This document shows, piece after piece, positions 3,175 through 38,157 of a DNA stretch of 64,000 nt. Made by a program: the position numbers and the translations under genes. How positions within the stretch are numbered: the first letter of the stretch is position 1; the number at the start of each line of letters is the position of its first letter. The DNA comes from Candidatus Dojkabacteria bacterium (GTDB taxonomy: Bacteria > Patescibacteriota > Dojkabacteria > SC72 > JAHDCA01). The DNA is taken from contig CP129478.1 in NCBI GenBank assembly GCA_030583845.1, forward strand, positions 715,686 to 779,685, in the 5' to 3' direction. The notes under the pieces were generated by a model, which saw nothing but the letters and a program-made list of their open reading frames with translations, was not told where the DNA came from and did no database searches.

Positions 3175-3180
3175 TCCTTA

Positions 3181-20324: not shown

Positions 20325-20546
20325 GGATCGAGAGTATGCTGGGAAGCTGGGGCGGAGGGGGAGTAAGTACTCTGAAAGATTCACTTGGGAGAAGTGCGCG
20401 GGTGAGGTCGAGAAGGTCTTGGAGGGTGTCTACAGGGAGTATTTCCCTGATGCAAAGAGCCGCAAAAAGCGCAAAACAAGGTAGTGGCTTCTTATGCTGG
20501 TCGCACGTATAATTGACCTGATTTTGAGATTAACTCTTCTAATTCA

Positions 20547-21046
20547 ATGGTAATTGAAATCTTGGCTCTGCTCGGTTACGTGCTGGTCGCGCTGTTGGTA
20601 GTAGCGGGACTTGTACTTAGCGCTATCAATCTACCAGGCATCTGGCTGGTGTTTCTTGCATCTTTGCTTGCTGCATTCATCAATAGATTCGACGAGATTA
20701 GCTGGCCTTGGATTATTCTATTTTTGTTTATGGCGATCGCAGGGATCTTTGTTGGACAACCTGATCGTGCTCTTTCAGCGCCAAGAAGTTTGGCGCAGGA
20801 AAGTGGGGGATTGTTGGGGCGATACTGGGGATGATTGTCGGCTTCTTTGTCGGAGGATTCGTCGGTGTAATTGTGGGGCCGTTTGTTGGTGTGGTGATAT
20901 TTGAGCTGTTGATTGATAAGAAAGAGATCAAGGCAGCACTCAAGTCTGGGCTTGGCACCGTGGTTGGTTTCATTGCTTCGGTTTTCTTGAAGTTTGGGCT
21001 TTCAATGTCGATTGTTGGGATAATGTTGCTGCTATTGGTAGGATAG
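20547..21046 (+). pseudogene. DUF456-family small membrane protein interrupted by a 1-nt frameshift near 20778-20786
   Basis: The N-terminal ORF (20547..20834) and the C-terminal ORF (20831..21046) are in different frames. Joined, they give ...RALSAP|KKFGAGKWGIVGAILGMIVGFFVGGFVGVIVGPFVGVVIFELL..., a canonical DUF456 glycine-zipper membrane protein. Confidence 0.55.
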
Positions 21047-21868
21047 TAGGAGTCTGTGACTTATAGAGGGATATTTCGTTAAAACGGCTTGGCATTCCTT
21101 GGCCTGTGCGATAAGATCAGTGTCAGATGAGACAGGCATAACTAAGTAAGAGCTCTTTTCGAAAGCAGTCGAGACTATTTCTACGATCCAGAGATTCCTG
21201 GACATATCAATTAGGGCAATCTGTTTGGCATCTGCCGAAGGATAGCCGGCTTTGAAGTTATTCGGCATCTGCAGGCCAATGTTTTGATTACCGACCATTA
21301 GCTCTGTCTCCTCCTGGCCACTAATAATTACATCACTTCCAGGTGTTTTTGCTTCGGCTAGCTGTCGTGTACCGCCTTCGTACTGGTAATACTTCTCTGG
21401 GGCTCCGTGATAATTGTTTGTCAGCAAGATAGAGGTAGGTGAGCAGTTGAGTGGCCTGACAGTTTGGTGAAGCTCAATAGTGTCGATACTCTTCCGTTCC
21501 GAATCTAAAATCGTGATGCTAGTCGCAAACTGATCAGGAGAGAATATAACGGAGTTGCTATATTGGCAGAAGAAAACTTCACGACCGTTGTAGCCTGCAA
21601 CCTCACCCTCTGGATGTTCAGCTAGAATTTTACTCACTCTATTTTTCGGATCATGTCGAGCCAGGAGGGTGGGTGTGTGGATTATAAGCTCTTCATCTAT
21701 CCATTCAACAAGGCTTACGCTCGAAAATTCACCAATAGGGTAGAGCAGGATCTTTGGTTTCGACTCTGGCTCATTCCTACCTTTTCCGACAAACCACACA
21801 ATCGGTATAGCTGGAGCGAACAGAAGGAATAATGATAGCGAAATAATTAATAGCTTGAATCTTCTCAT
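21032..21868 (-). CDS. Hypothetical membrane-anchored or secreted protein, co-transcribed with the M23 peptidase
   Basis: 278 aa with an N-terminal TM or signal sequence (MRRFKLLIISLSLFLLFAPAIPIV). It starts 3 nt after the upstream peptidase stop. I could not place it in a known family. Confidence 0.45.
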   Translation of the reverse strand: MRRFKLLIISLSLFLLFAPAIPIVWFVGKGRNEPESKPKILLYPIGEFSSVSLVEWIDEELIIHTPTLLARHDPKNRVSKILAEHPEGEVAGYNGREVFFCQYSNSVIFSPDQFATSITILDSERKSIDTIELHQTVRPLNCSPTSILLTNNYHGAPEKYYQYEGGTRQLAEAKTPGSDVIISGQEETELMVGNQNIGLQMPNNFKAGYPSADAKQIALIDMSRNLWIVEIVSTAFEKSSYLVMPVSSDTDLIAQAKECQAVLTKYPSISHRLLLSYQ

Positions 21869-21870
21869 GA

Positions 21871-24402
21871 TTAGTAACTTGGATGTGGATTATTTCCTGT
21901 CAATCTTCCAGGATTTGCGTTGGCTCCAAGAGTCGGGATCTTGCTCCAGTCAACATCCAAATGTGGCACTGGGTCAGTGTTATCCTTTTGATCCTTGCTC
22001 TTGCGCAGCTCGAAGTGGAGGTGGTATGCGAGAGGTTGGCAATTATATGCACCGCTGTTGCCGCTTACTCCAACCTGGTCGCCCTTTTTGATATTCTCAC
22101 CAACTCTCCAATCAATTCCACCGGCCTTTTTATAATTTTCTAGATGAAAGTAGAGTGAGCTCATGCCGTTACCATGATCAATCCTTAATATATTGCCACC
22201 GGATAGACATGGGCCGTAGTAGCTATCCCAACCTACAAATCCGATCTTCCCATTAGCGGTGGCAAAGAGTTTCTCGCGCGTACTGCCAAAATCTATACCG
22301 GTGTGGTGGTCATTGAAGGCAGTTTTGCCCCACCATTGAGTTACTCCAATCATTTTGGCAAACGGGTATTTAAAATACTTCTCGATCAATGTCCTATCCT
22401 CAATCTGGTTGATAGTGCTGCTATTAGAAGTTTTAGAAGTGCCGTTGATTTGCAGCCAGAAGCCACCCTTTATTCGTGTCGCGAGATTAAGTTCGAATGC
22501 AATAGTAGCAGCTTTTCCTTTATATGTTTCGCCGTTTGAGAAAAGCGAGTGTATATTTTCATCGACATTGGATGATTGATACTCGCGAGTACTTTTATTG
22601 TTTAGGACTAATTTAGCAGCTCCGATGCTTGTGACTATGACTTTTTCAGAGCTATCCTTAAATGGTAGGCAGAATGTGGTGAAAGCGTGTGGGATCTTGC
22701 ACTTATAATAATCAATATCCAGAGTCACATTTCTTTTAAACTGTGAGACGGCATTAATCCAGTAGTTTTTCTGATCCACTTTTATCTGACTCACCTGCTT
22801 GAGATTTGGTGCGCCAAACTTACAGGAAACAACACGAAGAGTTTTCAGATCTAGGTTGGCCTCAACCTTGCACCGATTGGCTGTGCTACTACGACTAGCG
22901 AGAGGAGATCCAAGAACAGATCTCAGCTCCTCAGCTGTGGATTCAGTTCCGAGCACTGCCTCGGTTGGAGCTACAAATTTGATTGGAACTGATCGCTCAC
23001 TCTGATTACCCGCAGCATCCAAGCTAGAAGCACTGTACGAGTACTCTTTCCCGGGCTCCCACTGCTCGACCAGTAAAAGTGGTTGACTCAACTCACCACC
23101 AGAAATGTTTTTAATTATCACACCATTCTCGAGTACTCTCACCGCGTTATCAGCATCCACTGAGATCTTAGCGCTGATGCTTTTAGCCAGCACGTCTGGC
23201 AAGAGTTCAATTACTGGAGTAGACGGAGGCGTCCAGTCGGTTATAAAACTAACCGACGACTCAGAGCTGTTGCCCGCACTGTCGACACCAACTACCTTCA
23301 GCAAGTTCTCGCCCTCCTTATCTGTGTTCACACTGCTCACCGGGAGTGAAATCTCTGCCTCATTTATATACAGCTTATACTCGCTATCAGCCTCCATGCC
23401 GCTTAGCTCGACAGGGACTACATGCTTGTTTGTAAGCAGCCCGTTCGTTGGGTAAAGGATTCGAACAGCGCCTGGCGAGCTCCAATCGAGAGTGAGCCTA
23501 CTCGGTGCTGTTGCCGATACGAGGTCGGAATTTCTTCTCCTGCTCTTCACGATCCATTCATATTCACCTTCACGCTCGAACTGATAGGTCAACGACTTTG
23601 CTTCGACCCACTCGCTTTGATAAACAGCTGAGCTATTCCGGCTAATCATCAGCTGATATTCCACGCCATCTTGCTGCTCATGCTTCCACTCAAATAGGAT
23701 ATTCCGATCCGCGCTATGCAACCCATCCACAGGAGTAAGTTCTGTCGCAGCAGCGACAGGCAGCTCCTCACCATACACAACTTCGAGATAAGGGATCTGA
23801 TTTAGATTGCAACGCGGTGAATCCAGATGGTTCACACAATCTTTCGACCAGAAGAGTGCACCAGGGAGAGCCTCATCTAGCACCTTGATGCCATAGCCTC
23901 GCGGCCACCGGCTCTCATCGGCAAATTGCGAGCGAAAGATCTCGGTCACATCAAAGACCTCAACTCCTGCACCAATATTCTGATTCACCACCTGCTGATA
24001 TCGCACATCAGGCAGAGCTGGCTGGTTGCTCCAATTCAGATTGCGATCTTCCCACAAAGCCGCTGTCTCAAACAGCTCCACAGTGTACTCCTCGCCGGCC
24101 ATATCCCTGTATTCTGACAGATACAGCTTTGCCGAAACCAGATTCTCCTGTCTGACCTCTTCGTCCCTGATAACCGAGTAGTCAAACTTGAGATAGGTAC
24201 GTGTTTCTCGTCGCGGTATTACACCATCGTAGCCTACCGAGAGATCTCGTGTGAGATACGAAGAAGATGTCGGATACCAGCGCTTTGTGAGCGTGTCTTG
24301 TGTGGGGTAGAGGATGAAGCGTTGATCTTCTGCGCTCGCAACCCCCGCGCAGATTAGGTAAAGGATGGCAGAAATGGCAGTAATCAATATTGATCTGAGC
24401 AT
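21871..24402 (-). CDS. Large secreted multidomain M23 (LytM-type) metallopeptidase
   Basis: Signal peptide MLRSILITAISAILYLICAGVASA. A C-terminal M23 domain carries HTGIDFG...D and HLHFE zinc-binding motifs. Ig/Fn3-like beta domains lie in the middle. The N-terminal domain has an E-D-R-N-L-N-W-S-N-Q-P stretch reminiscent of DNRLRE/carbohydrate-binding modules. Confidence 0.8.
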   Translation of the reverse strand: MLRSILITAISAILYLICAGVASAEDQRFILYPTQDTLTKRWYPTSSSYLTRDLSVGYDGVIPRRETRTYLKFDYSVIRDEEVRQENLVSAKLYLSEYRDMAGEEYTVELFETAALWEDRNLNWSNQPALPDVRYQQVVNQNIGAGVEVFDVTEIFRSQFADESRWPRGYGIKVLDEALPGALFWSKDCVNHLDSPRCNLNQIPYLEVVYGEELPVAAATELTPVDGLHSADRNILFEWKHEQQDGVEYQLMISRNSSAVYQSEWVEAKSLTYQFEREGEYEWIVKSRRRNSDLVSATAPSRLTLDWSSPGAVRILYPTNGLLTNKHVVPVELSGMEADSEYKLYINEAEISLPVSSVNTDKEGENLLKVVGVDSAGNSSESSVSFITDWTPPSTPVIELLPDVLAKSISAKISVDADNAVRVLENGVIIKNISGGELSQPLLLVEQWEPGKEYSYSASSLDAAGNQSERSVPIKFVAPTEAVLGTESTAEELRSVLGSPLASRSSTANRCKVEANLDLKTLRVVSCKFGAPNLKQVSQIKVDQKNYWINAVSQFKRNVTLDIDYYKCKIPHAFTTFCLPFKDSSEKVIVTSIGAAKLVLNNKSTREYQSSNVDENIHSLFSNGETYKGKAATIAFELNLATRIKGGFWLQINGTSKTSNSSTINQIEDRTLIEKYFKYPFAKMIGVTQWWGKTAFNDHHTGIDFGSTREKLFATANGKIGFVGWDSYYGPCLSGGNILRIDHGNGMSSLYFHLENYKKAGGIDWRVGENIKKGDQVGVSGNSGAYNCQPLAYHLHFELRKSKDQKDNTDPVPHLDVDWSKIPTLGANANPGRLTGNNPHPSY

Positions 24403-24555: not shown

Positions 24556-27552
24556 ATGTTCAACCTAATATCGAAGCTGTTCGATTCAAACGATAAGCAG
24601 ATTAAGAAAATCCAGCCCATAATTAATAAGATCAATGAGCTTGAGGATTGGAGCTCAAAGCTGTCCGATGATGAGCTTGCTGCAAAGACCACGGAATTCC
24701 GCAAAAAACTGGGAGTGGATATAAACAAGCTAGAGTGGGATTCGGAGTTTAACAAGCAAGAGGTCAAGGCAGAGCTGTTCGAGCTACTTCCGGAGGCATT
24801 CGCAATTGTCCGTGAGGCGGCCAAAAGATACACGGACCATAAGCACTTCGATGTGCAGATGGTGGCAGGCTATTTTCTCGCAGACAACAAGATCTCCGAG
24901 CTATTCACTGGAGAGGGAAAAACCAACGCAGCAAACCTACCTCTTTACCTCTATGCACTTACTGGTCGAAGCGCTCATCTGATTACAGTCAACGATTACC
25001 TCGCAAGACGTGACGGTGAGTGGAATGGGCATATCTTCAATCCACTTGGCATAAGTGTTGCGGTAGTAAATAATGGCGCCACATACAAATTCGTATCAGA
25101 TGAGGAGGCGATCGAGCGCAAAGGCGACGATGCCAAGAACGCAATCAAAGAACGAGATAAGAAGCGGAAAGAGGCTGGAAGGCTCAAGCTCGACATGATG
25201 GACGGCACCAATCTGATAGAGGTGAGCAAGCAGGAGGCGTATGCATGTGATGTGGTGTATGGGACTAATAATGAGTTTGGCTTCGACTACCTCCGTGACA
25301 ACATGGCTAGAAGATTGGGTGATAGGGTTCAGAGGAGATTGCATTTCGCGATTGTGGATGAGGCAGACTCAATCTTGGTTGACGAGGCGAGAACTCCGTT
25401 GATCATTTCGCAAAGCGCGCAAGCATCAAATGACCTTTATAAGCAGTTTGCTAATATAGTTAAGCAGATTAACAGGGACGAGCATTACACAATTGACGAG
25501 AAGACCAACTCCGTAGCTCTAAATGATGCTGGAATAGATCGATTAGAGAAGCTGCTGAAGACAGACAACATTTATGAAAATTCTCAATTCGCATACCATC
25601 TGGAAAATGCATTGAAGGCAAAAGAGCTCTATGTCCGCGACGACGAGTATATTATCCGCGATGGAGAGGTACTGATTGTGGATGAGTTTACAGGACGCGC
25701 AATGACAGGAAGGCGTTATTCAGAAGGTCTGCATCAGGCTATCGAGGCGAAAGAGGGAGTAGAGGTAAAGCGCGAGTCTCGAACACTTGCTACTATCACA
25801 CTTCAGAACTATTTTAGGCTTTACGACTTTATGTCCGGTATGACTGCTACAGCTTTGACTGAGGCCGAGGAATTCTCAAATATTTATAAGCTTGATGTTG
25901 TGGTTGTGCCAACTAACAGGCCTGTGGTGCGGGAAGATCTGAATGACCTGGTATATCGCAGCGAGATGGGGAAATTCAAGGCAATTGTGAATGATATCAA
26001 AGAGCACCATGAGAAAGGACAGCCGATGCTTGTGGGTACTGCGTCAGTTGAGCGGTCAGAGATCCTCTCGAATATGCTCGACCAGGAGGGAATTCCACAC
26101 GAGGTGCTGAACGCAAAGAATCACGAGCGAGAAGCAAAGATTGTCCAGAATGCTGGCCAGCTCGGTGCTGTCACTATCGCTACAAACATGGCCGGTCGTG
26201 GTACAGATATCGCACTTGGGAAAGGTGTTAAAGAGCTTGGCGGTCTATATGTGATCGGATCAGAGCGACATGAGTCTAGGCGAATCGACAACCAGCTACG
26301 AGGTCGATCAGGAAGACAGGGTGATCCAGGAACTTCGAGATTTTATGTCTCATTTGAAGATGAATTGATGCGGCTTTTCGCAGGTGAGAGAGTAAAGTCA
26401 ATCATGAGCTCAATCGGCATGGATGATGATATGCCGATCTCGGCAGGTATGCTGGGAAACATCATCGAGAGCGCACAGAAGAAGGTCGAAGCATACAACT
26501 TCGACATCAGAAAGCGACTGGTTGAGTATGATGACGTGCTTAATCAGCAGAGAGACATTGTGTATGGATTGAGGAAGAGAGTGCTCTCTGTGATTGAGGA
26601 TGGCGATAAGGCAGAGATAAAAGCAGTAAAGATCGATGAGAAGGTTTTGAAAAAGCTGGATATAAATGCAATCTTGGAGGATATTGATGGTTTCTCCTTA
26701 AAAGACAAGGAAAGTTGGGAGGTCGATCAGTTTAAGAAATATCCGCAGATTCACCGCCCTGCAAATTTCTGGATCTTGAAAAGGATTGTAGATCATGTGA
26801 GATATGTCGTCGCTGCACAGCTGCAAGATGATATGAAGATTGACAATGAGGAGGAGCGAAAGACGTTTGCTCAGGTGCAGTCACTGATGACTGACGAAAT
26901 TACTGAGAGCGCCGCTAAAGCATTAGGCTACAAGGATTTCGGAGATTTCTTCAAAGATGTAGATTCGAGGAAAGATGCCGCTGAGAAAGAAAATCTATTG
27001 CTGCAGCTAGTAATTGTAGGGTTTATACAGCATATCGATGCAATTAATCCGAAAGCTGTTGGGGAGCTCAGCAGATTGCTCATTTTGCAGTCGATCGACA
27101 ATTTCTGGATGGAGCATCTGGATGCTATGGGTGACCTACGAGAGGGTGTAGGCATGCGAAGCATGGCTCAACGAGATCCGCTTGTTGAGTATAAGAATGA
27201 AGGATTCCAGCTGTTCGAGAAGATGCTGAGCAGTGTTGACGATGCAGTTGTAAATAGGTTCTATAAAGTGCGCGTAGTGGAACGGGATGAAAGTGTAGCT
27301 CAGGCAAGAGCGATTCATGAGACTGTGGGAGCTATCGGTGGCGGATCGGTGAAAAGTGATGCAGGCAGCGCCTTGGATGCTAAAGTGCGTGCAGTAAGGC
27401 GAGATGCGGCGCAGTCACGCAAAGATGAGCGTCCTGGTGAGACCTCAAAGCAGAAAACTGTGGTACGTCAGGACCAGAAGGTGGGGAGAAATGATCCTTG
27501 TCCGTGTGGTAGCGGGAAGAAGTATAAGAAGTGTCACGGCAAGGGATTGTAG
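24556..27552 (+). CDS. secA: Preprotein translocase ATPase SecA
   Basis: 998 aa with DEAD-like motor motifs. The conserved N-terminus is MFNLISKLF...[16 protein letters not shown]. The C-terminal zinc-binding tail is [16 protein letters not shown]. Confidence 0.95.
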
Positions 27553-27554
27553 CC

Positions 27555-29156
27555 TTACACAGGAGATTCATGCGATACAAATTCGGAAATGAAAAGCTCC
27601 GACCGATCTTCACTTACTTTGACCAATGCATTTATCTTCGCGACAAGTCGCCCCAACCCGTCAAGGCTGTCGGAGAATCCTTTTGTCTGGCTGGCATAAT
27701 TCCCTTGCTGAATCTGTTGCTCGTAGGACTCCCAAACAGTCGGAGACTTAGCGGTTCTTGGGCTAACTTGGCTAATAGCCTTAAATAGTGACAGTAGAAA
27801 AATCAGTGGTATAAAGCTTCGATTCTCAAGAAAACTTGCGTGGGTCAGCGACTTCTCCGTAAATTCTAAGTAATCCTTCGCAATATTTCTTGCGTAATAG
27901 ACACTTCTTATGTTACTCAACGGGGCAATACTATCCTGATCATTTTCGTAAAGGTGGTCGTGCAAGATGCCATACTGCTCAGTAGCAGCCTCTGTATTGA
28001 AGTGTACACCCAGTAGTTTCTGTGCTTCATCGAGAAACACTTCTGTATATCGTTCTTTTGTAGGGGAGGGCAGAGGGATTATATCGTCAAAAAATTTTGT
28101 GCCACCGAGGAAAGCTTCTCCCTCCATAACCCACTTTTGTTCGTCTTTCGTGAGCATCTTTCCAATTACTTTGCTTAACATATGTTTGTCAAATGCAGTT
28201 ACAACAGTAAGATGGTTGAACTGTGAAAGGTCTTTAGCAATCTTGAGGATGGAAACGAGGTACTGAGCGCGCACATCTCTTTCGATGTCATCAAGGAATA
28301 CATACAGATCAATATGAAATGCCTCGATTACTTCGCTTATTCGCCGTTGTATGTCACTCGAAGACTTGCGCGGGAGCATAGTACTCATCACTTTATATAG
28401 GATCCCGTACTCTGGTTGTATCGTTGAGATTAGCTCTCCGTACTTTGCTAGGTCGGCATAGAGATTAAATCCTGTTTCTCGCTCTATTTCTAAGGCAATT
28501 TTCTCTAAGATCATGGAAAGTATGTCGTTGTAGGTGGTAGCTCCTAGGAAAGATGCGTATATAACTACATTTTTGCTTTGGGTCTGTTGTGGTTTCTTCA
28601 ATCCCTTGATCATCTCAGCAAGGACGAATGACTTCCCGGTACCCCATCCTCCAGTGATAGCGACTGAACTCTTACTAGTGTTCTGGATAGCTGCTAGTGC
28701 TTTGTCTCTAACCTCATCACGATCAAGTTTATCACCGCTCTGGTGAGACTTCAGAAAACTGGATAGATCTACGTCATCTTCATTGAGAGGTCTTTGCTTG
28801 TAACTACTCCCTACAAAGATAGCACCAATACCGAGAACGCCTAAAAGGAAATAATAGAAAATAATTACCGATTCCACATTACCCCCGCTATCGTCTGATT
28901 CCATTTTTGCCTCATAAAATTCAACTACTACCTCAGCGCGGGATTCAATATTTTCATCTAATGTTTGGAGCGCGTCGACAACCTTGTCAGCAGAAAGAAT
29001 TAGTATAATGGAAAGGATAAGACATCCGACAAGCATTCGCACATAAGTATCTACAACTCCTTTAGTTCGAGAATTGAACTTAATAAGGGCAAACAAATGT
29101 TTTGAGTGGTAGCCAAGAAGAGCAAGTATTATAAGCGTGATGAAGAGGTATATCAC
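27555..29156 (-). CDS. KAP-family P-loop NTPase with three N-terminal transmembrane helices
   Basis: Walker A VAITGGWGTGKSFV matches the KAP-signature GxWGxGKS. Walker B is LYVFLDDIERD. Three hydrophobic helices occupy the first 130 aa. The gene starts with GTG. Confidence 0.8.
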   Translation of the reverse strand: MIYLFITLIILALLGYHSKHLFALIKFNSRTKGVVDTYVRMLVGCLILSIILILSADKVVDALQTLDENIESRAEVVVEFYEAKMESDDSGGNVESVIIFYYFLLGVLGIGAIFVGSSYKQRPLNEDDVDLSSFLKSHQSGDKLDRDEVRDKALAAIQNTSKSSVAITGGWGTGKSFVLAEMIKGLKKPQQTQSKNVVIYASFLGATTYNDILSMILEKIALEIERETGFNLYADLAKYGELISTIQPEYGILYKVMSTMLPRKSSSDIQRRISEVIEAFHIDLYVFLDDIERDVRAQYLVSILKIAKDLSQFNHLTVVTAFDKHMLSKVIGKMLTKDEQKWVMEGEAFLGGTKFFDDIIPLPSPTKERYTEVFLDEAQKLLGVHFNTEAATEQYGILHDHLYENDQDSIAPLSNIRSVYYARNIAKDYLEFTEKSLTHASFLENRSFIPLIFLLSLFKAISQVSPRTAKSPTVWESYEQQIQQGNYASQTKGFSDSLDGLGRLVAKINALVKVSEDRSELFISEFVSHESPV

Positions 29157-29369
29157 TTCAGTTGTGGTTAATATTAAGTATTACCTTCCTAATATCACAT
29201 TTGCGGAAAATGGTCTAATGTAGAAAGCCTCGTACTACAGGGTTTATTGACAGGACTATTTGCCTATATTATTCTGAACTATAAATAAAAGCTTTGGAGC
29301 GAGGAATTTCTAATATTGAATAGCTCCGGTTTTCAAGGCTGGTAATTTTAATCTCGACTTTGTTTTTTA

Positions 29370-29978
29370 ATGACTGCCCCAAAAGCAAAGAAAATCTCGC
29401 CGAAGGAGAAGCAATCGGCCACAGTTGATGAGTCGATGAAGAAGCTCTCCGACGAGAAAGGGATTCAATTCGTTGTTTTCGCCCCAGTAAATGCCGATCC
29501 AGATGATGAGGATAGCCGTATCTATATGGTTTGTCCTGCGTCGCTTAAGGTTGTTGAGGTGGTAGAAAAGTCTGGCGAAGAGGCTGATGAGTATCTCACA
29601 CGACTTGGCAAGACGAAGAAGAAGACCGAGCAGTCCTCGTCCACATTTATTGATGATCTAGGAGATGCTGTTGATGTGGATGATAGCTTGGTTCAGGATG
29701 GTAGTGGGTATAGCGCTGCGAAGAAAAAGAATGATGAGGAGGAGGAAGTGGCAGGAGAGCTTGGCAGTTTTGAAGATATTGAAGAGGATGTGGTCGCATT
29801 TGCAAACGACTCGTTGCTTGATATTTTCCCAGATGATGGCACTTCAGGAGATGCTACTTCTGCGGTATCAGATGTGGATATGGCTGATGCACTTGCACTT
29901 CTTGATCAGGATGACGAAGTTGGTGATATTGAGCTGGATGACTTCTCAGACGACGACGGGGAATTACCTTCTCTTTAG
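29370..29978 (+). CDS. Hyper-acidic small protein (DUF1292-like N-terminal core plus an Asp/Glu-rich tail)
   Basis: 202 aa. The core IQFVVFAPVNADPDDEDSRIYMVCPASLKVVEVV resembles DUF1292/UPF0473. The C-terminal 120 aa are roughly 40% D/E. It is divergent from the KAP NTPase. Confidence 0.45.
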   Translation: MTAPKAKKISPKEKQSATVDESMKKLSDEKGIQFVVFAPVNADPDDEDSRIYMVCPASLKVVEVVEKSGEEADEYLTRLGKTKKKTEQSSSTFIDDLGDAVDVDDSLVQDGSGYSAAKKKNDEEEEVAGELGSFEDIEEDVVAFANDSLLDIFPDDGTSGDATSAVSDVDMADALALLDQDDEVGDIELDDFSDDDGELPSL

Positions 29979-30029: not shown

Positions 30030-31181
30030 ATGAAGTCAAAACCTATAGCCAAATTCTCAAAGATACGTGTAGCCGTTGTAACCGACTGGATGGCAACTCC
30101 AGGTGGAAGCGACAGGCTTATGGAGCAGCTCTTAAAGCTTTTCCCGCAAGCTGCGATTTTTACGTCGTACTATAATAGAAAAGCCTACCAAGGAACCTTC
30201 GCCGAAAATTATGAGGTCAAAACCTCATTTATCCAGAAGATGCCGTTTGTGAGATCATTGCATCGCCACTACAATGTTTTTACGCCGCTAGCATTTGAGA
30301 GTTTCGACTTTACAGGCTATGACCTGGTAATTTCATTAAGTGCTGGAGCAGCGAAGGGTGTTATTACAAAAGTAGATCAGCCGCATATTTCGATTATACT
30401 GACGCCGCAAAGGTCGCTGTGGGATCAGGAAAGCAATGTGCGAGGGTCACGTTTTCGATTTTTCTACAAGCTCGCTTCACCATTTATAGCGAACTATATG
30501 CGTAGCTGGGATATTGCAGCATTCCAGCGTGCCGACCTGCACCTTTCGATATCGAAATATATTGCAGACAAAGTGCGCAAAGTATATCGAGCCGATTCAG
30601 AGGTGCTATATCCTGGAATCGATGAGTGTTGGTTTGGCAATGAAATGCGAAGGCCTAATCAATATTTGCCAAAATCGTATTTTCTGGTCGTTTCAAGGCT
30701 GTACGATTATAAGCGAATCGACTGGGCGATTGAGGCATGCAAAAAAGCTCGTAAGAATTTGCTTATTGTCGGCGATGGTCCCGACAGAAGATATCTTGAG
30801 AAGAAAGCCGGCAATAGTAAATTCATTAACTTTCTAGGATGGGTAGATGATCTCGAATTGAAGTATCTTTATAAAAATGCCAAGGCCCTAATATTCCCTG
30901 GGGTAGAGGATTTCGGCTATACGCCTATTGAGGCGATGGCACTCGGTACACCCCAAGTCGCACTTCGCGAAGGCGGAGTTAAAGAAACCGTTGTAGAAGG
31001 CAAAACTGGTGAATTTTTCGAGTCTCAAGAAGAATTATGCGAAAAACTCGCCAAATTCAGCAAGCTAAAATATAATGAAAAAGAGATAGTTCGGAACGCA
31101 AAACGCTTTTCAGAAAGCCAGTTTCAGAAAAATTTCATTAAATACCTCAACCAGTTAAAGCTATATGCAGAAGAAAAGTAA
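30030..31181 (+). CDS. GT4 family glycosyltransferase
   Basis: VEDFGYTPIEAMALGTPQVALREGGVKETVVEGKTGEFF is a GT4 motif. Confidence 0.85.
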   Translation: MKSKPIAKFSKIRVAVVTDWMATPGGSDRLMEQLLKLFPQAAIFTSYYNRKAYQGTFAENYEVKTSFIQKMPFVRSLHRHYNVFTPLAFESFDFTGYDLVISLSAGAAKGVITKVDQPHISIILTPQRSLWDQESNVRGSRFRFFYKLASPFIANYMRSWDIAAFQRADLHLSISKYIADKVRKVYRADSEVLYPGIDECWFGNEMRRPNQYLPKSYFLVVSRLYDYKRIDWAIEACKKARKNLLIVGDGPDRRYLEKKAGNSKFINFLGWVDDLELKYLYKNAKALIFPGVEDFGYTPIEAMALGTPQVALREGGVKETVVEGKTGEFFESQEELCEKLAKFSKLKYNEKEIVRNAKRFSESQFQKNFIKYLNQLKLYAEEK

Positions 31182-32319
31182 AGTCGCATTCGTTATACAT
31201 CCGCTATATACATGGGGTGGGGCAGAGGCGATGCTTAGAGATATGATACGAGTTTATCCGAATAGCGATGTGTATACCGCTTGGTACGACAAGAAGATTA
31301 CCGACCAGCTCGGCATAAAAGGAAAAGTATATGCCAGCTACCTCCAAAAATTTCCACTCAAGAAGAAGTTGAGACAGGAGTTAATTCCGCTCCTTCCAAA
31401 GGCCTATAAGAAGATGGTAATCCAGAACTACGACCTCGTCTGGGTTATCTCGGATCAGTTCGAGAAGCAGATCACACTCAGAAATAACAACGTCGAGGTC
31501 TTAAATATCATGACGCCGCCAAGATTTCTCTGGATGGATACCCGCTCTACCGTCAACTTACCAAAGCCAACATATAAAGCGTACAAATCAATAGAAGATA
31601 AGCTGCACCCAAAATGGCAATCAATCGACAAGGCAGCAGTAAAGAGATTCAAATATATCTCCTCGATCTCAAACGATGTCCGCTCACGTGTCGCCAAGAT
31701 CTATGGTGAGTACTCAGAAGTTCTCTACCCCCCAGTCAAGCTCGACCATATCCGCTTCACCAAGAGCATGTCGTCGCGAGAAAAGTGGTTCCTATACCTC
31801 GGCCGGATTGAGAGCTACAAAGGGATCGAGATGCTGATCGAGGCGTGCGCATTCTTGAAGCACCAATTGAAAATTGCTGGAACAGGCAGTGATATCGAGC
31901 GTATGCGCCAACTTGTCGCAGAGCTTGAAGCAACAGACTTAATAGAGATAATGGGGTTTGTATCGGAAGAGCAGAAGCTTGAGCTACTTGAAAAGGCGAG
32001 AGCGCTTGTTTTCCCAGTCAAAGACGAGGACTTTGGCATTGTGCCTATCGAGGCAATGGCCGCAGGCTGTCCGGTGATTGCATTCAATGGTGGCGGTGCA
32101 GCCGAAACGGTTGTGCACGGCAGTACAGGAATACTTTTCGACGACTACACGGCACAAGGCCTAGTAGATGCAATTCATGAATTTGAAATTCATGGCTTTA
32201 AGCCAAATGTAATCCGCTCACACGCACAGGAATTCTCCTACGAACGCTTCGAAAATAAGTTCCGCACCTATGTTGATGCGATAGCGAAAGAGACGTTATC
32301 CAAGCGCGGCGGGCAATGA
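31165..32319 (+). CDS. GT4 family glycosyltransferase
   Basis: DEDFGIVPIEAMAAGCPVIAFNGGGAAETVVHGSTGILF is a GT4 motif. It overlaps the upstream GT4 by 17 nt and uses the only TGA stop in the window. Confidence 0.85.
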   Translation: MQKKSKVAFVIHPLYTWGGAEAMLRDMIRVYPNSDVYTAWYDKKITDQLGIKGKVYASYLQKFPLKKKLRQELIPLLPKAYKKMVIQNYDLVWVISDQFEKQITLRNNNVEVLNIMTPPRFLWMDTRSTVNLPKPTYKAYKSIEDKLHPKWQSIDKAAVKRFKYISSISNDVRSRVAKIYGEYSEVLYPPVKLDHIRFTKSMSSREKWFLYLGRIESYKGIEMLIEACAFLKHQLKIAGTGSDIERMRQLVAELEATDLIEIMGFVSEEQKLELLEKARALVFPVKDEDFGIVPIEAMAAGCPVIAFNGGGAAETVVHGSTGILFDDYTAQGLVDAIHEFEIHGFKPNVIRSHAQEFSYERFENKFRTYVDAIAKETLSKRGGQ

Positions 32320-32948
32320 ATCAGTTAAAAGATCAGGTCATAATCATTAAATCAGTAAACTATTCAGAGGCGGATAAGATCCTCACAGTTTTCGGCCGAA
32401 ATAGAGGGAAATTCAGCATCATCGCCAAAGGCATTCGCAAAATCACCAGCAAAAATCGCGGCAATATGCAGACCTTGTCGGTGACTGAGATCACATATTT
32501 TGAAGGGAAGAACCTGGGGATTTTGAAAGAATCTAATGCGGTCGTGCTGGTGCCGCCAGAGGATATTGATATGGATAGTGCGAAGCGGCTGCTTTTTGTC
32601 TTAAATAAGCTTCTTCCCGAAGCCGTGCCTGAAGAAGAGATATTCGAGATGGCGGTTGGAGTGATAAGTGAAGGTATTAAAGCGGAAGATTTAAACCGCT
32701 TCAGGATAAAGTTCCTACAAAACCTGGGATATATTAATGAGATGAGCCTGTGCAATGTTTGCGGCAAGAAAGTTGGTAAGCAGGACTATCTAGATCCACA
32801 TGCATTTAAGGTGATTTGCGAAAACTGCGCCAGAAATATTAATGAAGTCTCGCGAGCATCGCACATCAGAATTAATGAAATCCCTATCGGCTCAAGTAGA
32901 ATGGGCGAGCTGCTAGATCGAGTAATCGAGCAGGTGCTCCACGCTTAG
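32316..32948 (+). CDS. recO: DNA repair protein RecO
   Basis: The N-terminal OB-fold is VIIIKSVNYSEADKILTVFGRNRGKFSIIAKG. The C-terminus has a Cys4 zinc finger (CNVCGKK...ICENCAR). It overlaps the GT4 stop by ATGA. Confidence 0.8.
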   Translation: MNQLKDQVIIIKSVNYSEADKILTVFGRNRGKFSIIAKGIRKITSKNRGNMQTLSVTEITYFEGKNLGILKESNAVVLVPPEDIDMDSAKRLLFVLNKLLPEAVPEEEIFEMAVGVISEGIKAEDLNRFRIKFLQNLGYINEMSLCNVCGKKVGKQDYLDPHAFKVICENCARNINEVSRASHIRINEIPIGSSRMGELLDRVIEQVLHA

Positions 32949-32949
32949 T

Positions 32950-34143
32950 CTATTCAACAGCTGCGGCCACATCCTCAATTAGCTCTCCCCAAGCCAGATC
33001 CCCTTGCCCAGTACCAAACCGCACTATCACCATATTCTTCTCAGGGAAAACATAAATATATTGCCCAAGATGTCCCCATCCAGCGACGCTGTCCAGATCA
33101 TCCTCTGCATCAGTGAGCCACCATCCGCGATTGTAGTGTAAATCATCACCATACTCAGGCACCGCATTCACCTCATTCATTTCCATCGAGTCCTCGATCC
33201 ATTCAGATGAGATCAGCTGCTCACCATCCCATTCGCCTTTGTCTTGCACCAGTACTCCCAGCTTGGCGAAATCAATTGCACGAGCATTGATGCCACTCTC
33301 CATCTTTGTCATACCACCCTGCTCACTGTCGAGGCTCCACGAGCCCTCATACTCCATGCCTAGTCTGCTCCAAAGCTTCTGCTCGAAATACTCATACGCC
33401 TTCATCCCGGTAGCCTCCTCCAAGATCATGCCCAGAAGGATCGGGTTGTAGCTATTGTATTGAAACTCCTCGCCCGGCTCACCTGTGACCTGCAGGCTCA
33501 TGACATGAGTCCGGAGATCTGGGTGGTAGTATGCTTTCGGCTTATCTCCCCAAGGGAGATCGTGATCCGCAAATTCGATCCCAGATTTCATCGAGAGCAG
33601 GTCCTCGATTGTCACATCTTGATAATCTGGGTCGGTGTCTGAAAGCTCTGGTAGATATTTCGTAACAGGATCGTCTAGGCTTTCGATTGCACCCTCTTCG
33701 ATTGCGACTCCGATCATTAGGGCAGTAATTGACTTCGCAGTAGAGAAAGATGTGTTAATTGAGGTGCGCTCATATTCATTAAAATACTCCTCGTAGATAA
33801 TCTTGCCATCCTTGACCACAATGAAGGCTGTAGTATCGTTCTCCTCCAAGAGGCGGTCTAATTCGACTTCGCTCCCCTGCTGTTCAAATTTCTGCTCGCC
33901 AAGTGACTGATCATCTGCTACCTCAAGGTAGTAGGGTGAGTCGCTTGCTATAAAGGTAGCTGCAGGGAATTTCTTGTAATCCTCAACATCTGACGCCTTC
34001 CAGGCAAACCATCTGCCGATGTATGTGTCGGTGCGGGTGGTGAGGTATAGATATGTCGTAAATAGTCCAACAAGCAGAACTGTCAGAACGGAAAAGGCGA
34101 TTATGGTTTTCTTCGCTTTGATCATACTAGTATCAGTATACAA
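32950..34143 (-). CDS. Membrane-anchored serine hydrolase of the beta-lactamase/PBP4 (class C-like) family
   Basis: N-terminal transmembrane helix. S-x-x-K active-site motif FSTAKSITALMIG. 397 aa. Confidence 0.75.
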   Translation of the reverse strand: MYTDTSMIKAKKTIIAFSVLTVLLVGLFTTYLYLTTRTDTYIGRWFAWKASDVEDYKKFPAATFIASDSPYYLEVADDQSLGEQKFEQQGSEVELDRLLEENDTTAFIVVKDGKIIYEEYFNEYERTSINTSFSTAKSITALMIGVAIEEGAIESLDDPVTKYLPELSDTDPDYQDVTIEDLLSMKSGIEFADHDLPWGDKPKAYYHPDLRTHVMSLQVTGEPGEEFQYNSYNPILLGMILEEATGMKAYEYFEQKLWSRLGMEYEGSWSLDSEQGGMTKMESGINARAIDFAKLGVLVQDKGEWDGEQLISSEWIEDSMEMNEVNAVPEYGDDLHYNRGWWLTDAEDDLDSVAGWGHLGQYIYVFPEKNMVIVRFGTGQGDLAWGELIEDVAAAVE

Positions 34144-34295
34144 CTTCTGAAATAGCTGTTGAATAAAGCGGAAAATGCTTATATAATTGCTACGACCATC
34201 CCGCCACGCCAGCTTATAATATGCTTAGTACATCTGTAAAGATTTTCTAAGGCGATAAGTTAGCGTAGCGGGACAGGCAAACCCCATTTGTATGT

Positions 34296-34368
34296 GGGCC
34301 AGTAGCTCAATTGGTAGAGCAAGCGACTCTTAATCGCTAGGTTCTGGGTTCGATTCCCAGCTGGCTCA
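34296..34368 (+). tRNA. tRNA-Lys (anticodon CUU)
   Basis: Cloverleaf read by hand. Acceptor stem GGGCCAG/CTGGCTC (one G-U pair). D-arm GCTCAATTGGTAGAGC. Anticodon stem AGCGA/TCGCT with loop CTCTTAA (U33, anticodon CTT, A37). T-arm CTGGGTTCGATTCCCAG. Discriminator A. No encoded CCA. Confidence 0.85.
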
Positions 34369-34369
34369 T

Positions 34370-34400
34370 TTTGTAATACCACCATTGGTGATATTACAAA
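34370..34400 (+). terminator. Strong hairpin immediately 3' of tRNA-Lys (9-bp perfect stem TTTGTAATA/TATTACAAA plus an inner imperfect stem); no U-tract
   Basis: Inverted repeat tttgtaataccaccattggtgatattacaaa. The only T-run (TTTT) precedes rather than follows the stem. The element may be a processing or termination structure. Confidence 0.35.
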
Positions 34401-34410
34401 ATGAATGAGT

Positions 34411-34455
34411 GAAATTGAACCCAAGGTTCGTGAGGACGCATCCCACGCATGCAAG
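34411..34455 (+). repeat. Copy 1 of a ~45-nt conserved motif containing the hairpin core GTGAGGA-CGCA-TCCCAC
   Basis: gaaattgaacccaaggttcgtgaggacgcatcccacgcatgcaag lies 25 nt upstream of the DKNYY gene start. It is near-identical to the copy at 35726..35770. Confidence 0.6.
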
Positions 34456-34479
34456 AAATAATAATGAAGATTTAGATAT

Positions 34480-35685
34480 ATGAATATATTCTCAAATCTA
34501 TCCAAAAGAGTTTCTCGAACAAATGGGAAGATATCAAGTTTAGACAGAAGCCAGAAGCTACTAATCTTCGCCGCACTTTTCGTATTCATTGCATTGATAA
34601 TTACTCCTCTGGGAGATCTCTACTTTAATAAACCTGAGAAGCCACAAGAGAGTACTTCTATAAAGACGAAGAAAAGCTGCTCGGTCTACGAGACAGAATC
34701 GATCGTGCCGCAGGCAGATGGCCAAAGTGTAGAAAGTGAAACTATCGCTAAAGATTTTACACGCAAATATGCTCCATCCGACTGCCAATTTTCCCCGGAG
34801 ATTAGTATCGCATCGTTAGATACTGCTAGCTGTGAAAGGATTTCAACACACGTTATTGTAGATAAAAACAATGTATATAAATGGCAATATGATCCTGGTA
34901 GCTCGAATTACTCAACATATATTGTTGTAGAGGAAGCAGATGCGGAAAGCTTCACAAATCTGTATTGGAATTATTATAAGGATAATACAAATTTGTATTA
35001 CGATACTGGAGAGAACCTGAGCATAGTAGATCAAATCAACCTGGAGTCTGTAGAGGTTCTTTCTGCGAGTTATATTAAGGATAAAAACGGAGTCTATTAC
35101 GTCAGCTTCTCTGATGGTGAAGTAGATATTAGGCCAATACCTGGCTTTGATACTGCAACCTTTGCGGTTGTACAAAATCAGCACAATATACAGACATATT
35201 TTAAAGATAGGAATGGCGTATATTATTTCGGTTCGCAAGAAGCTGATCTTACACCTTCGGAAACAGTAATAAGTGAGGCGGATGTTGATACATTTATTGT
35301 TCTAAATACATATCTCTTGGCGAAAGATAAGAGCCATGTTTATTATGAGGGTATAGTAGTCCCAAGTGTAGATGCAGAGGCATTTGAAGAGCTTGGTGGC
35401 GGCTATTATAGGGATAGATCTAATGTTTATACAACAGGCATGAATAGGGCAGATTTTGAACCTCTCGACGATAGCGATCCGTGTACATTTGAATTGCTTG
35501 GTTATACTAGCGATTCAAATTGGTCGGGATATGCAAAAGACGAAAATCAAGTCTATTATCTCGGATCGGTAGTAGTCGGGGCTGACGCTGAAACTTTTCA
35601 AACAACACACTCCCAAGGGGTTTATGGAGGCTATGATAAAAACTACAGGTATCAGGGGAAGTATAGGCTGGAGGAACTTGAATAA
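34480..35685 (+). CDS. DKNYY-repeat family putative lipoprotein or secreted protein
   Basis: N-terminal transmembrane or signal helix. Seven D(K/R)N-x-VY(Y) repeats are spaced about 45 aa apart (DKNNVYKW, DKNGVYYV, DRNGVYYFG, DKSHVYYEG, DRSNVYTTG, DENQVYYLG, DKNYRYQG). Confidence 0.7.
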   Translation: MNIFSNLSKRVSRTNGKISSLDRSQKLLIFAALFVFIALIITPLGDLYFNKPEKPQESTSIKTKKSCSVYETESIVPQADGQSVESETIAKDFTRKYAPSDCQFSPEISIASLDTASCERISTHVIVDKNNVYKWQYDPGSSNYSTYIVVEEADAESFTNLYWNYYKDNTNLYYDTGENLSIVDQINLESVEVLSASYIKDKNGVYYVSFSDGEVDIRPIPGFDTATFAVVQNQHNIQTYFKDRNGVYYFGSQEADLTPSETVISEADVDTFIVLNTYLLAKDKSHVYYEGIVVPSVDAEAFEELGGGYYRDRSNVYTTGMNRADFEPLDDSDPCTFELLGYTSDSNWSGYAKDENQVYYLGSVVVGADAETFQTTHSQGVYGGYDKNYRYQGKYRLEELE

Positions 35686-35725
35686 GCCCTGTTGATTCCC
35701 AGATATTACTTCTGCAGAGTGATCT

Positions 35726-35770
35726 CATTCAAAACCATCGGTTCGTGAGGATGCATCCCACAAATGTAAT
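35726..35770 (+). repeat. Copy 2 of the ~45-nt conserved motif (hairpin core GTGAGGA-TGCA-TCCCAC)
   Basis: cattcaaaaccatcggttcgtgaggatgcatcccacaaatgtaat lies 41 nt after the DKNYY stop and about 170 nt upstream of the Ldh_2 gene. Confidence 0.6.
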
Positions 35771-35937
35771 GAGTGGCAGATGTGACGTCATACTGAGTCG
35801 ATTGAGGTCTGCGAGCGCAGTGAGCAGATACCGAAATGAGACGTAGTGATTCTCAGCTTTCTATCTAACACACTGTCTTTGCCAAGCCAATTGGTTTATA
35901 ATTGGCTGGGATCCACATAAACTATTATCTCTAATCA

Positions 35938-36918
35938 ATGAAGGTCAAACTTACGGATTTAGAATCACTCGTATCTAAGGCATTGCTCAAATATGGATAC
36001 TCGGAAGAAGAAGCGAAAGTCATCCAGAAGATCCTCCTATTTGCCCAGCTCCGAGGAAACAACCAGGGGGTAGTAAAGTTGATAGGAAACGGTATACCTC
36101 GCAATCCTGAAGGAGTAGCTCCAACAATTGAAAAAGAGACTCCCGTCTCAGCATTAGTAAATGGTAATAGTACCCATGCAATGGTTGTAATGGATATGCT
36201 TGTGGATATTGCGATTGGGAAGGCAGAGAAGTCAGGAATTGGAATCGCGGGTAATTACAATGGAGATGCTTCGACAGGGGCGATAGGTTACTACGTAAAC
36301 AGGATAGCCGAGAAGGGATTAATAGGTATAGCATTTGCCTCAGCTCCATTTCAGACCACCGCACCATACGGCGCAACTGAGGCTAAATTTTGCACAAACC
36401 CAATGGCTTACGGTATCCCGACAGAGGGTGACCCGATCATTTTGGATATGTCTACTTCAACTATGGCCTATTACGGTTTAATTGAAGCGGAAACGGCGGG
36501 GAAAGATGTACCAGAGGGTACTGGTTATGATAAGGACGGAAAGGAAACGACCGATCCTGCAGAAATAATGTCCGGTGCATTAAAAACTTTTGGTGGTCAT
36601 AAAGGATCGGGCCTCGCACTAATAGTGCAGATCTTCGCTGGGGCATTAGTAAATGCAGATTCGTTTAACAATGATAGTGAAAATGCTGGAAATTTGGTTA
36701 TTGCGATTGACCCGGCAATCTTCTTGACTCAAGATGATTTCAAAAAGAGGGTGTCAGAGATCGTAGCAAATGTGAAATCAGCGAGAAAGCTGGAAGGTGT
36801 CGATGAGATCCTGATTCCAGGCGAGCGGGGTAATAAGGTTATGGAATCAGCTATGAAGAGAGGGGAGATCGAGATAGAGGAAAATCTATATAAAGAGTTA
36901 ATGGCAGTTGCTAAGTAA
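35938..36918 (+). CDS. Ldh_2 family (malate/L-lactate/sulfolactate-type) NAD(P)-dependent dehydrogenase
   Basis: 326 aa. FGGHKGSGLALIVQIFAGAL is the family-typical GHKG motif, and overall length and composition fit PF02615. Confidence 0.7.
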   Translation: MKVKLTDLESLVSKALLKYGYSEEEAKVIQKILLFAQLRGNNQGVVKLIGNGIPRNPEGVAPTIEKETPVSALVNGNSTHAMVVMDMLVDIAIGKAEKSGIGIAGNYNGDASTGAIGYYVNRIAEKGLIGIAFASAPFQTTAPYGATEAKFCTNPMAYGIPTEGDPIILDMSTSTMAYYGLIEAETAGKDVPEGTGYDKDGKETTDPAEIMSGALKTFGGHKGSGLALIVQIFAGALVNADSFNNDSENAGNLVIAIDPAIFLTQDDFKKRVSEIVANVKSARKLEGVDEILIPGERGNKVMESAMKRGEIEIEENLYKELMAVAK

Positions 36919-36924
36919 TTTCAT

Positions 36925-37347
36925 TTGAGAAACATGAAAAGCCACCTTTATCACATCCAACTCAACATCGACTTCGCCAACCGAGACTTCTACAAAGAGC
37001 TAATGGAGTTCATGGGCTGGAGCGTGATCTTTGAGAAACCAGAATCCACAATCGGATTTCGAAGTGAGACCAACGGCGACCTCTGGTTTATACACGCTGA
37101 TCATCAAGAGGATACTGATTACGACGCAAGAGGGATGAACCACATCGCTATCCGTGTCGAGAATCAAGCCGATATCAACCAGATTCAAGCTCACCTAGAA
37201 AGTAACGGTGTGAAGATGCTTTTCGGTACGCCACTGCACAGACCAGAGTTTGCAAGCAAAGAGGGTGAGACCTATTACCAGATTATGTTTGAGTCACCGG
37301 ATAAGATCTTGTGGGAGATAGTGTATATCGGAGCAAAGTGTGGGTAG
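36925..37347 (+). CDS. VOC (glyoxalase/bleomycin-resistance/dioxygenase) superfamily protein
   Basis: 140 aa. It contains HIQLNI...HIAIRVEN beta-alpha-beta-beta-beta module signatures. Confidence 0.55.
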   Translation: MRNMKSHLYHIQLNIDFANRDFYKELMEFMGWSVIFEKPESTIGFRSETNGDLWFIHADHQEDTDYDARGMNHIAIRVENQADINQIQAHLESNGVKMLFGTPLHRPEFASKEGETYYQIMFESPDKILWEIVYIGAKCG

Positions 37348-37389
37348 ATTCTATTAATCGCAGCTGTAGAAAGTCAACTTGTAGAAATA

Positions 37390-38102: not shown

Positions 38103-38157
38103 AGCCCCTCGCTAAGCCTCTCCCTACTAATCACCGCATCATCGCAAAGAACTCTTA

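Follow-up and report, generated by a model that had tools for sequence, protein, structure and literature searches.

Several KAP-family P-loop NTPases are known to act against phage. Four single-gene KAP proteins that carry membrane helices protect Enterococcus faecalis from phage in a manner that depends on the Walker B motif (PMC13552941), and PifA is described in PMC13001434, which cites earlier work, as excluding phage T7 by membrane-level abortive infection. Here we describe a gene for a KAP NTPase in a 64,000-nt stretch of DNA (the window) from a Candidatus Dojkabacteria bacterium (assembly GCA_030583845.1, contig CP129478.1, positions 715,686 to 779,685), a member of the Candidate Phyla Radiation (CPR), or Patescibacteria. 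The gene encodes a protein of 533 aa and lies between secA and a divergent gene for an acidic protein of 202 aa. A first-pass annotation had proposed that the KAP and acidic genes form a two-gene conflict or defense module. We are highly confident that these genes do not form a pair and that KAP represents an accessory insertion or deletion (indel) inside a recombination tract. The reading of the locus that we favor, with a probability of about 0.6, is that two unrelated things happen to be adjacent: a core acidic gene, and an accessory KAP gene that is exchanged by recombination and would encode a stand-alone, membrane-anchored anti-phage NTPase.

The 533-aa protein resembles the validated single-gene KAP defenses, but it is shorter and has no link to a recombinase. 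EF_KAP and three metagenomic KAPs (PMC13552941, PLoS Biol 2026) share with it a one-gene plan, one or more N-terminal membrane helices, a KAP domain with Walker A and Walker B motifs, and accessory status. In both EF_KAP and the 533-aa protein, the C-terminal part has no recognizable domain, although this region measures 322 aa in EF_KAP and only ~70 residues follow the lid in the protein studied here. The model of EF_KAP has one N-terminal membrane helix and another inside the KAP domain, whereas three helices are N-terminal and none is internal in the present case. Moreover, the KAP genes of PMC13552941 adjoin small serine recombinases, whereas no recombinase was found among the KAP neighbors examined here.

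Other described systems are more distant. PifA (F plasmid, T7 exclusion; PADLOC model PDLC02361) belongs to the KAP family like the 533-aa protein and is its best PADLOC match. However, the alignment is partial, covering profile positions 31–286 of 720 at low identity and in the P-loop part only, and PifA is reported in PMC13001434 as having no transmembrane helices, in contrast to the three found here. The protein was therefore rejected as a PifA orthologue. RdrA of the RADAR system (PDB 8hr8, 8fnw) is the best structural match to the NTPase and lid, with 13% identity and a TM-score of 0.41. RdrA is soluble, has ~830 aa, and works with the deaminase RdrB, whereas no partner gene stands beside the KAP gene. 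Because RdrA forms heptameric rings, oligomerization of the modeled 533-aa protein is suggested as well. Tmn is likewise a membrane-anchored single-protein P-loop NTPase, which senses a phage protein and acts via the membrane, but it represents a different family, and its membrane helices sit inside the P-loop domain.

A KAP gene present in one strain and absent from its sister

The strongest part of the result is a comparison of filled and empty sites whose junctions could be placed with a precision of a few bases, inside a visible recombination tract. The filled site comes from a metagenome-assembled genome (MAG), and NCBI annotation places the identical KAP protein in a Candidatus Dojkabacteria MAG. 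The empty site is carried by three Logan contigs of the same species as the window (L003, L004, and L005, from runs DRR779146, DRR779145, and DRR859400). These come from three samples yet are identical to one another, and thus represent one sister strain. The window corresponds to L003 up to position 27557 and again from 29217 on. Between these points 1,659 bp stand in place of 16 bp, which read TTGGCTTCCATTGGGA in all three contigs. The left junction shares the bases CTTA, and the TAA stop codon of the KAP gene (27555–27557) falls at this junction, two nucleotides from the stop codon of the convergent secA gene, as had been noted earlier. The sole plausible gene in the insert is the KAP open reading frame (ORF), accompanied by its 60-nt leader.

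There are no direct repeats, inverted repeats, or target-site duplication at the flanks of the insert, and no transposase, integrase, or recombinase gene within its 1,659 bp. With no terminal repeats, no mobility gene, and no ORF other than that for KAP, a self-mobile element of any kind considered (insertion sequence, transposon, integron cassette, or integrative island) was rejected. The nearest tRNA gene is 5 kb away. The first-pass annotation had proposed a comparison of base composition and codon usage between the locus and its flanks, and the KAP gene proved ordinary on both counts. Its guanine-plus-cytosine (GC) content is 0.421, compared with 0.437 for the window, and its codon-usage distance ranks 28 among 40 ORFs. 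Foreign composition of the insert was therefore rejected, and the ordinary codon usage points to a donor that was probably of similar composition.

The indel is enclosed by a tract in which the window and L003 diverge (Table 1). This tract starts just 5′ of secA, with the first difference at 24283, and ends inside a gene for a beta-lactamase-fold protein. On either side the two strains have zero differences, over 3.4 kb (20907–24282) and 1.9 kb (33948–35857). We interpret the tract as a probable replacement of ~9.7 kb by homologous recombination with a donor relative that was ~3% diverged, and the presence or absence of the KAP gene would have been carried along. Because the gene lies inside a diverged tract whose flanks are free of differences, homologous recombination in the neighboring DNA, and not a mobile element, appears to carry it from strain to strain.

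Two smaller blocks also diverge from L003, one at 19457–20906 with 46 differences and one at 35858–38117 with 22. Both are probably additional recombination imports, so such imports seem to recur. The former block covers a gene at 19203–20324 for a glycosyltransferase of family 4 (GT4). Among the 40 ORFs of the window, this gene has the highest GC content at third codon positions (0.599) and the second-highest codon-usage distance (1.206).

Further evidence for the filled allele comes from a fourth Logan contig, L007 (1,723 bp; run SRR24881069), which is 100% identical to window positions 27524–29246. This span comprises exactly the 31-mers of the filled allele that are absent from the empty allele. 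The filled and empty alleles therefore appear to coexist in that sample, where they would form a bubble in the k=31 assembly graph. None of the more distant relatives has a KAP gene in the spacer between secA and the acidic gene. This single-gene indel is therefore accessory and derived, whichever the polarity of the change.

Table 1. Positions, within the window, of the KAP insertion, the surrounding genes, and the parts of the KAP protein
Feature	Position	Strand	Basis or remark
Diverged tract relative to L003	24283..33947	.	266 differences in 8,005 shared bp (3.3%); encloses the KAP indel
secA	24556..27552	+	ORF list and Pfam; flanks the slot on the left, conserved
KAP-family P-loop NTPase gene, 533 aa, GTG start	27555..29156	-	ORF list and Pfam
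Insertion of 1,659 bp, this strain	27558..29216	.	blastn and junction alignment against L003, L004, L005
P-loop NTPase core, about residues 140–365	28062..28739	-	AlphaFold2, Foldseek, Pfam
Walker B LYVFLDDIERD, residues 284–294	28275..28307	-	Translation
Walker A GGWGTGKS, residues 169–176	28629..28652	-	Translation
N-terminal membrane region, residues 1–119	28800..29156	-	Kyte-Doolittle, charge counts, AlphaFold2
KAP gene leader, 60 nt, within the insert	29157..29216	-	Junction alignment, promoter scan
Promoter-like site TTGACA-N17-TATATT	29247..29275	+	Promoter scan, spacer alignment; outside the insert
Acidic protein gene, 202 aa	29370..29978	+	ORF list; lineage-conserved, outside the KAP unit
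GT4 (30030–31181), GT4 (31165–32319), recO (32316–32948)	30030..32948	+	Conserved right part of the block

An acidic core protein and the variable slot beside it

Both the KAP ORF and the acidic ORF are real, and 213 nt separate the two divergent genes. A search for relatives of the acidic protein returned 24 proteins with 42–99% identity. The organism is named for three of the 24, and all three are Candidatus Dojkabacteria. Genomic context was fetched for nine cases (L001, L002, a 115-kb contig from the Joint Genome Institute [JGI], L003, L004, L005, L006, L015/L016, and L017). The gene order in all nine is secA (+), acidic gene (+), GT4, GT4, and recO, and in none of the nine does this site hold a KAP gene. 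The secA gene of L006 was confirmed at 83% identity. Where contigs extend far enough, a gene for an M23 peptidase is found upstream on the other strand, L015 and L016 being the exceptions. In the window, the ORFs for the two GT4 proteins and RecO overlap, and 51 nt lie between the acidic gene and the first of them. The acidic protein is thus a core protein specific to the Dojkabacteria lineage and the product of the first gene of an acidic-GT4-GT4-recO transcription unit. Synteny with secA across the lineage had been named beforehand as a finding that would speak against a two-gene module, and the acidic gene shows it in the absence of KAP.

The same distinction applies to the promoter. The first-pass annotation had assigned a TTGACA-17-TATATT site to the inserted unit. 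The site itself is real, but it lies in the conserved flank and not in the insert. In an alignment of the spacer between secA and the acidic gene that took in L001, L002, L003, L005, L015, and L017, the motif TACTACAGGG-TTTATTGACA-N17-TATATTATTCT is kept across Dojkabacteria species. Because of this conservation, the site is predicted to be the ancient native promoter of the acidic-GT4-GT4-recO unit. Between the promoter and the start codon of the acidic gene, the 5′ leader has a short hairpin followed by a T-rich run (29326–29342). The part of the leader that bears this hairpin occurs only in L003, L005, and, in diverged form, L001, and is missing in L002, L015, and L017.

The composition of the acidic protein had been cited as typical of DNA mimics and anti-restriction proteins, with Asp and Glu put at about 40% of the C-terminal 120 residues. 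The measured value is 32.5%, and only the best 40-aa stretch reaches 40%. No Pfam family (E<=0.1), NCBIfam family, or PADLOC family matches the protein, no PHROG match is meaningful, and no structural (fold) match was found. A proposed likeness to DUF1292 fared no better. DUF1292 proteins are also small, acidic, and without an assigned function, but the model (PF06949) matches none of the 24 family members, even at E<=10. A DNA mimic or anti-restriction factor of the Ocr or ArdA type was rejected on the grounds that the protein has no such family or fold match and is encoded by a core syntenic gene. The family appears to be unannotated and specific to Dojkabacteria.

What the family does conserve is a core of ~50 aa with invariant residues V36, F37, P39, Y52, V54, P56, V61, V62, E63, E66, and K67, together with three tail motifs: DIVAFA..L.DIFP, DVDMADAL.LLD, and a terminal LPEL or LPSL. 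AlphaFold2 folds a small core at about residues 30–82 (predicted local distance difference test [pLDDT] score 78–90) and leaves the tail disordered except for two short helices at the motifs. This predicted build, a folded core with tail motifs, suggests that the protein may be a protein-binding adaptor. The C-terminal tail of the single-stranded DNA-binding protein SSB is likewise acidic with a conserved hydrophobic tip.

The spacer between secA and the acidic gene has received other cargo elsewhere. In one relative (JGI 3300072015 contig) it holds a gene for a 179-aa Ser_hydrolase protein. In L006 (2396–3178) it holds a gene for a 260-aa Exo_endo_phos protein that overlaps the secA stop codon. 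In the remaining relatives examined the spacer is empty. Because relatives carry either different cargo or none, the spacer behaves like a variable slot.

Small differences are also seen nearby. In L001 a further ORF, of 176 aa, separates the acidic gene from GT4, and a ParE / PhdYeFM toxin-antitoxin pair (2814–3304) stands between a DUF456 gene and the gene, upstream of the M23 peptidase, for a 232-aa protein. The pair is missing from the corresponding position in L003 and therefore represents a further small accessory insertion in the neighborhood. Both proteins of the GT4 pair pass the cutoff of 26 for the Pfam model "GT4-conflict" (26.7 and 38.1 bits). General GT1 models give them much higher scores, their synteny holds in all relatives, and PADLOC does not match them, so the "conflict" label is probably not meaningful. 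The sole RNA gene in the window according to ARAGORN and Rfam is a tRNA-Lys (CTT) at 34295–34369. A 109-aa ORF on the opposite strand (34260–34589) overlaps it and was dismissed as an artefact.

The KAP protein and its scarce relatives

The 533-aa protein was confirmed as a member of the KAP family with an N-terminal membrane anchor. Pfam KAP_NTPase (PF07693) scores 60 bits over residues 159–343 (cutoff 20; E 2.9e-16), whereas the YobI model reaches 14.7 bits and remains below its threshold of 27. Walker motifs of the types G-x-W-G-x-G-K-[ST] and h-h-h-h-D-D-[IL]-[DE]-R are both present. In an alignment of 69 KAP relatives, G172, G174, and K175 never vary, and D289, D290, and R293 hardly ever do.

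The AlphaFold2 model (pLDDT 82.7, predicted template modeling score 0.76, core pLDDT >90) contains strands at 162–168, 195–202, 282–289, 316–322, and 358–361. A soluble helical insert (residues 209–279) separates Walker A from Walker B. The core is followed by a helical lid that reaches to about residue 464, and then by a short helical C-terminus at residues 466–533. When this model was searched with Foldseek, the best PDB matches were RdrA of RADAR (E 8e-7) and then ORC/Cdc6, with a probability of 1.00. The modeled fold is thus predicted to be an ASCE/AAA+-like alpha/beta core with a helical lid. By profile match, motifs, and fold alike, the protein is a genuine KAP P-loop NTPase.

Three hydrophobic helices precede the core. 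A Kyte-Doolittle scan places them at about residues 2–16, 40–56, and 96–116, and AlphaFold2 places them at 2–27, 32–54, and 94–119. The first loop between them is basic (4 K/R, 1 D/E) and the second is acidic (12 D/E, 3 K/R). These charges predict that the N-terminus would be outside the cell and the NTPase domain in the cytoplasm. In neither the Kyte-Doolittle scan nor the AlphaFold2 model does a hydrophobic segment separate Walker A (169) from Walker B (289). The canonical KAP form, going by the title of the 2004 paper by Aravind et al. that PMC13001434 cites, is said to carry transmembrane helices inserted within the NTPase domain, and this within-domain membrane insert is not present in the 533-aa protein. 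The first-pass annotation had therefore considered the N-terminal placement to be unusual. However, at least two hydrophobic helices lie upstream of Walker A in 76 of the 130 KAP relatives that have a recognizable Walker A. Because so many relatives share it, the N-terminal layout is not anomalous. It is a widespread variant that gives no ground for exclusion from the family, and Pfam KAP_NTPase matches all 69 KAP relatives that were re-scanned.

An N-terminus of the form M-x-x-L-F/Y and the first membrane helix are common to KAP relatives, which supports the GTG start codon used here. An in-frame TAA lies eight codons 5′ of this start. A start codon farther downstream, which would make use of a promoter-like site at 29156–29128, was rejected because relatives share the N-terminus and first helix.

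Close relatives of the protein are hard to find. An exhaustive HMMER search of 1.84 billion cluster representatives returned 174 matches at E<=1e-3. Only two of them have at least 30% identity, namely P0026 (37%, 1.8e-53) and P0027 (30%, 4e-19). A word-indexed search of 5.8 billion clusters recovered the KAP protein itself and nothing else, and searching with a profile brought in three more proteins, all distant. Scans of 185,579 species genomes and of JGI metagenomes likewise turned up nothing close, the KAPs that they returned being only 20–31% identical. Where the host of these is named, it is one of Prevotellaceae, an uncultured Bacteroidia MAG, Candidatus Limiplasma, and a Pikeienuella MAG. 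The sub-family is therefore rare and sporadic. A scan of viral contigs gave no relative, and PHROG matches are weak and limited to the P-loop; a phage origin was rejected for these reasons.

The gene for P0027 (L014, 436–2082) is wedged between rpsG (S7) and an L25 gene, with hrcA and grpE nearby, and the sample it came from also gave a Dojkabacteria relative. Ahead of the gene for P0026 (L013, 59–1893) comes a hydrophobic ORF, in a different frame, that resembles a split-off membrane region of P0026 itself. A frameshift, an error in sequencing, or a split of the gene could account for it. No acidic-family gene is found in the neighborhood of P0026 or P0027, and both are lone genes in differing contexts. 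Besides PifA (2.5e-10), PADLOC matches the 533-aa protein to the candidate single-gene systems PDC-S20 and PDC-S49, and it matches the relatives to PifA (3.5e-19, for P0027) and QatA.

Weighing the readings of the locus

The least probable explanation is that the insertion is a chimeric join made during assembly. The genome is a MAG, and the sequence on both sides of the insert is shared with another allele, as might be expected of such an error. This can be set aside with near certainty because L007, an independent assembly from another run, reproduces the whole insert and both junctions, and because the ORF ends cleanly at a junction and matches the genome in composition. Nor does the proposed two-gene module, in which the acidic protein would serve as a DNA mimic, an anti-restriction factor, or a partner of the NTPase, fit what was found. 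Its appeal lay in two adjacent and divergent genes, an acid-rich tail, and the use of the KAP family in defense. In every relative examined, the otherwise identical sister strain included, the acidic gene occupies the same place without KAP, and KAP relatives in turn have no acidic neighbor. The boundary of the insert at 29216 excludes both the acidic gene and its apparently ancient promoter, and the acidic protein has no DNA-mimic, anti-restriction, phage, DUF1292, or structural match. We therefore regard the module as refuted. The prediction of an inserted, strain-variable gene from a phage-defense family was borne out for the KAP gene alone. It is harder to say which strain changed. The data fit a gain of KAP in the window strain as well as the import of an empty allele by its sister. 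That KAP was resident in the species and was lost when the L003–L005 strain imported an empty secA-recO tract is a tentative alternative that we rate below even odds. The diverged tract is symmetric, so either strain could be the recombinant, and L001 gives no blastn match, which leaves no usable outgroup at the nucleotide level. The absence of KAP here from all more distant relatives nevertheless indicates a gain somewhere within the species cluster, and under either polarity the gene stays accessory and recombination-exchanged.

A different question is whether the accessory KAP gene is a defense gene, which our analysis only somewhat favors. The anti-phage reading derives from family precedent, namely PifA and the four single-gene KAP proteins, and it accords with polymorphism at the strain level and sporadic rarity, which are typical of conflict genes. 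All of the experimentally tested prokaryotic KAPs cited here act against phage (PMC13552941 and PMC13001434). An accessory membrane NTPase with a role outside defense, such as regulation of a membrane complex or signaling, or even a functionless passenger nearing loss, is unlikely. The same two papers cite the original proposal that KAP NTPases regulate membrane-associated complexes, and the seemingly split-off membrane region of P0026 hints at decay of a sub-family that is very rare. The intact ORF, canonical Walker A and Walker B motifs, and confident fold of the 533-aa protein argue against this alternative. Several observations count against the reading that we favor. The protein has no recognizable effector or sensor domain, and at 533 aa it is shorter than most relatives (700–900 aa). 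Its PADLOC and Pfam matches are confined to the P-loop part (profile positions 17–208 of 293). The promoter scan found no consensus promoter in the KAP leader. The genes within ~10 kb, for SecA, the M23 peptidase, glycosyltransferases, RecO, and the beta-lactamase-fold protein, have housekeeping or envelope roles. A scan of the neighbors found no defense gene, and those tested with PADLOC gave no match, so no defense island was seen. Finally, the comparison of filled and empty sites, whose polarity can be read in two ways, involves one filled and one empty strain.

If the defense reading is correct, the KAP protein would act on its own as a membrane-anchored, NTP-dependent switch of the KAP class, akin to PifA and EF_KAP. 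Its cytoplasmic module of P-loop core and lid might oligomerize as a ring, as RdrA does, and detect a phage cue. Binding or hydrolysis of NTP could then act via the three-helix membrane bundle, the helical C-terminus (466–533), or both, so that the membrane would be perturbed or infection blocked. The gene itself brings no mobility machinery of its own, and its presence or absence appears to be passed between close strains through exchange of the flanking core genes on the ~9.7-kb tract.

A more ambitious version can be imagined, although we consider it improbable. Ultra-small CPR bacteria such as Dojkabacteria, in which mobile elements are few, might maintain a "cassette slot" between secA and the acidic operon that swaps single genes purely by recombination in its core flanks. 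The KAP protein would combine sensor and effector in a minimal, self-contained form, with the three-helix bundle itself killing the cell or blocking the phage, and the acidic protein would be a lineage-specific adaptor that binds either RecO or the basic zinc-finger tail of SecA.

The KAP family itself is already known, and the new member, found in a CPR lineage, belongs to a rare sub-family. The analysis also removes a false lead, since the acidic neighbor is a core gene of the lineage and neither a KAP partner nor a DNA mimic. Candidate phage-defense genes have been little charted in CPR bacteria, which have tiny genomes and mostly uncharacterized phages. With its mapped junctions, visible tract, and apparently coexisting alleles, the filled and empty pair offers a natural experiment on whether a gene of this sort gives protection from phage. 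The locus also shows that accessory genes can move in CPR bacteria without mobile elements.

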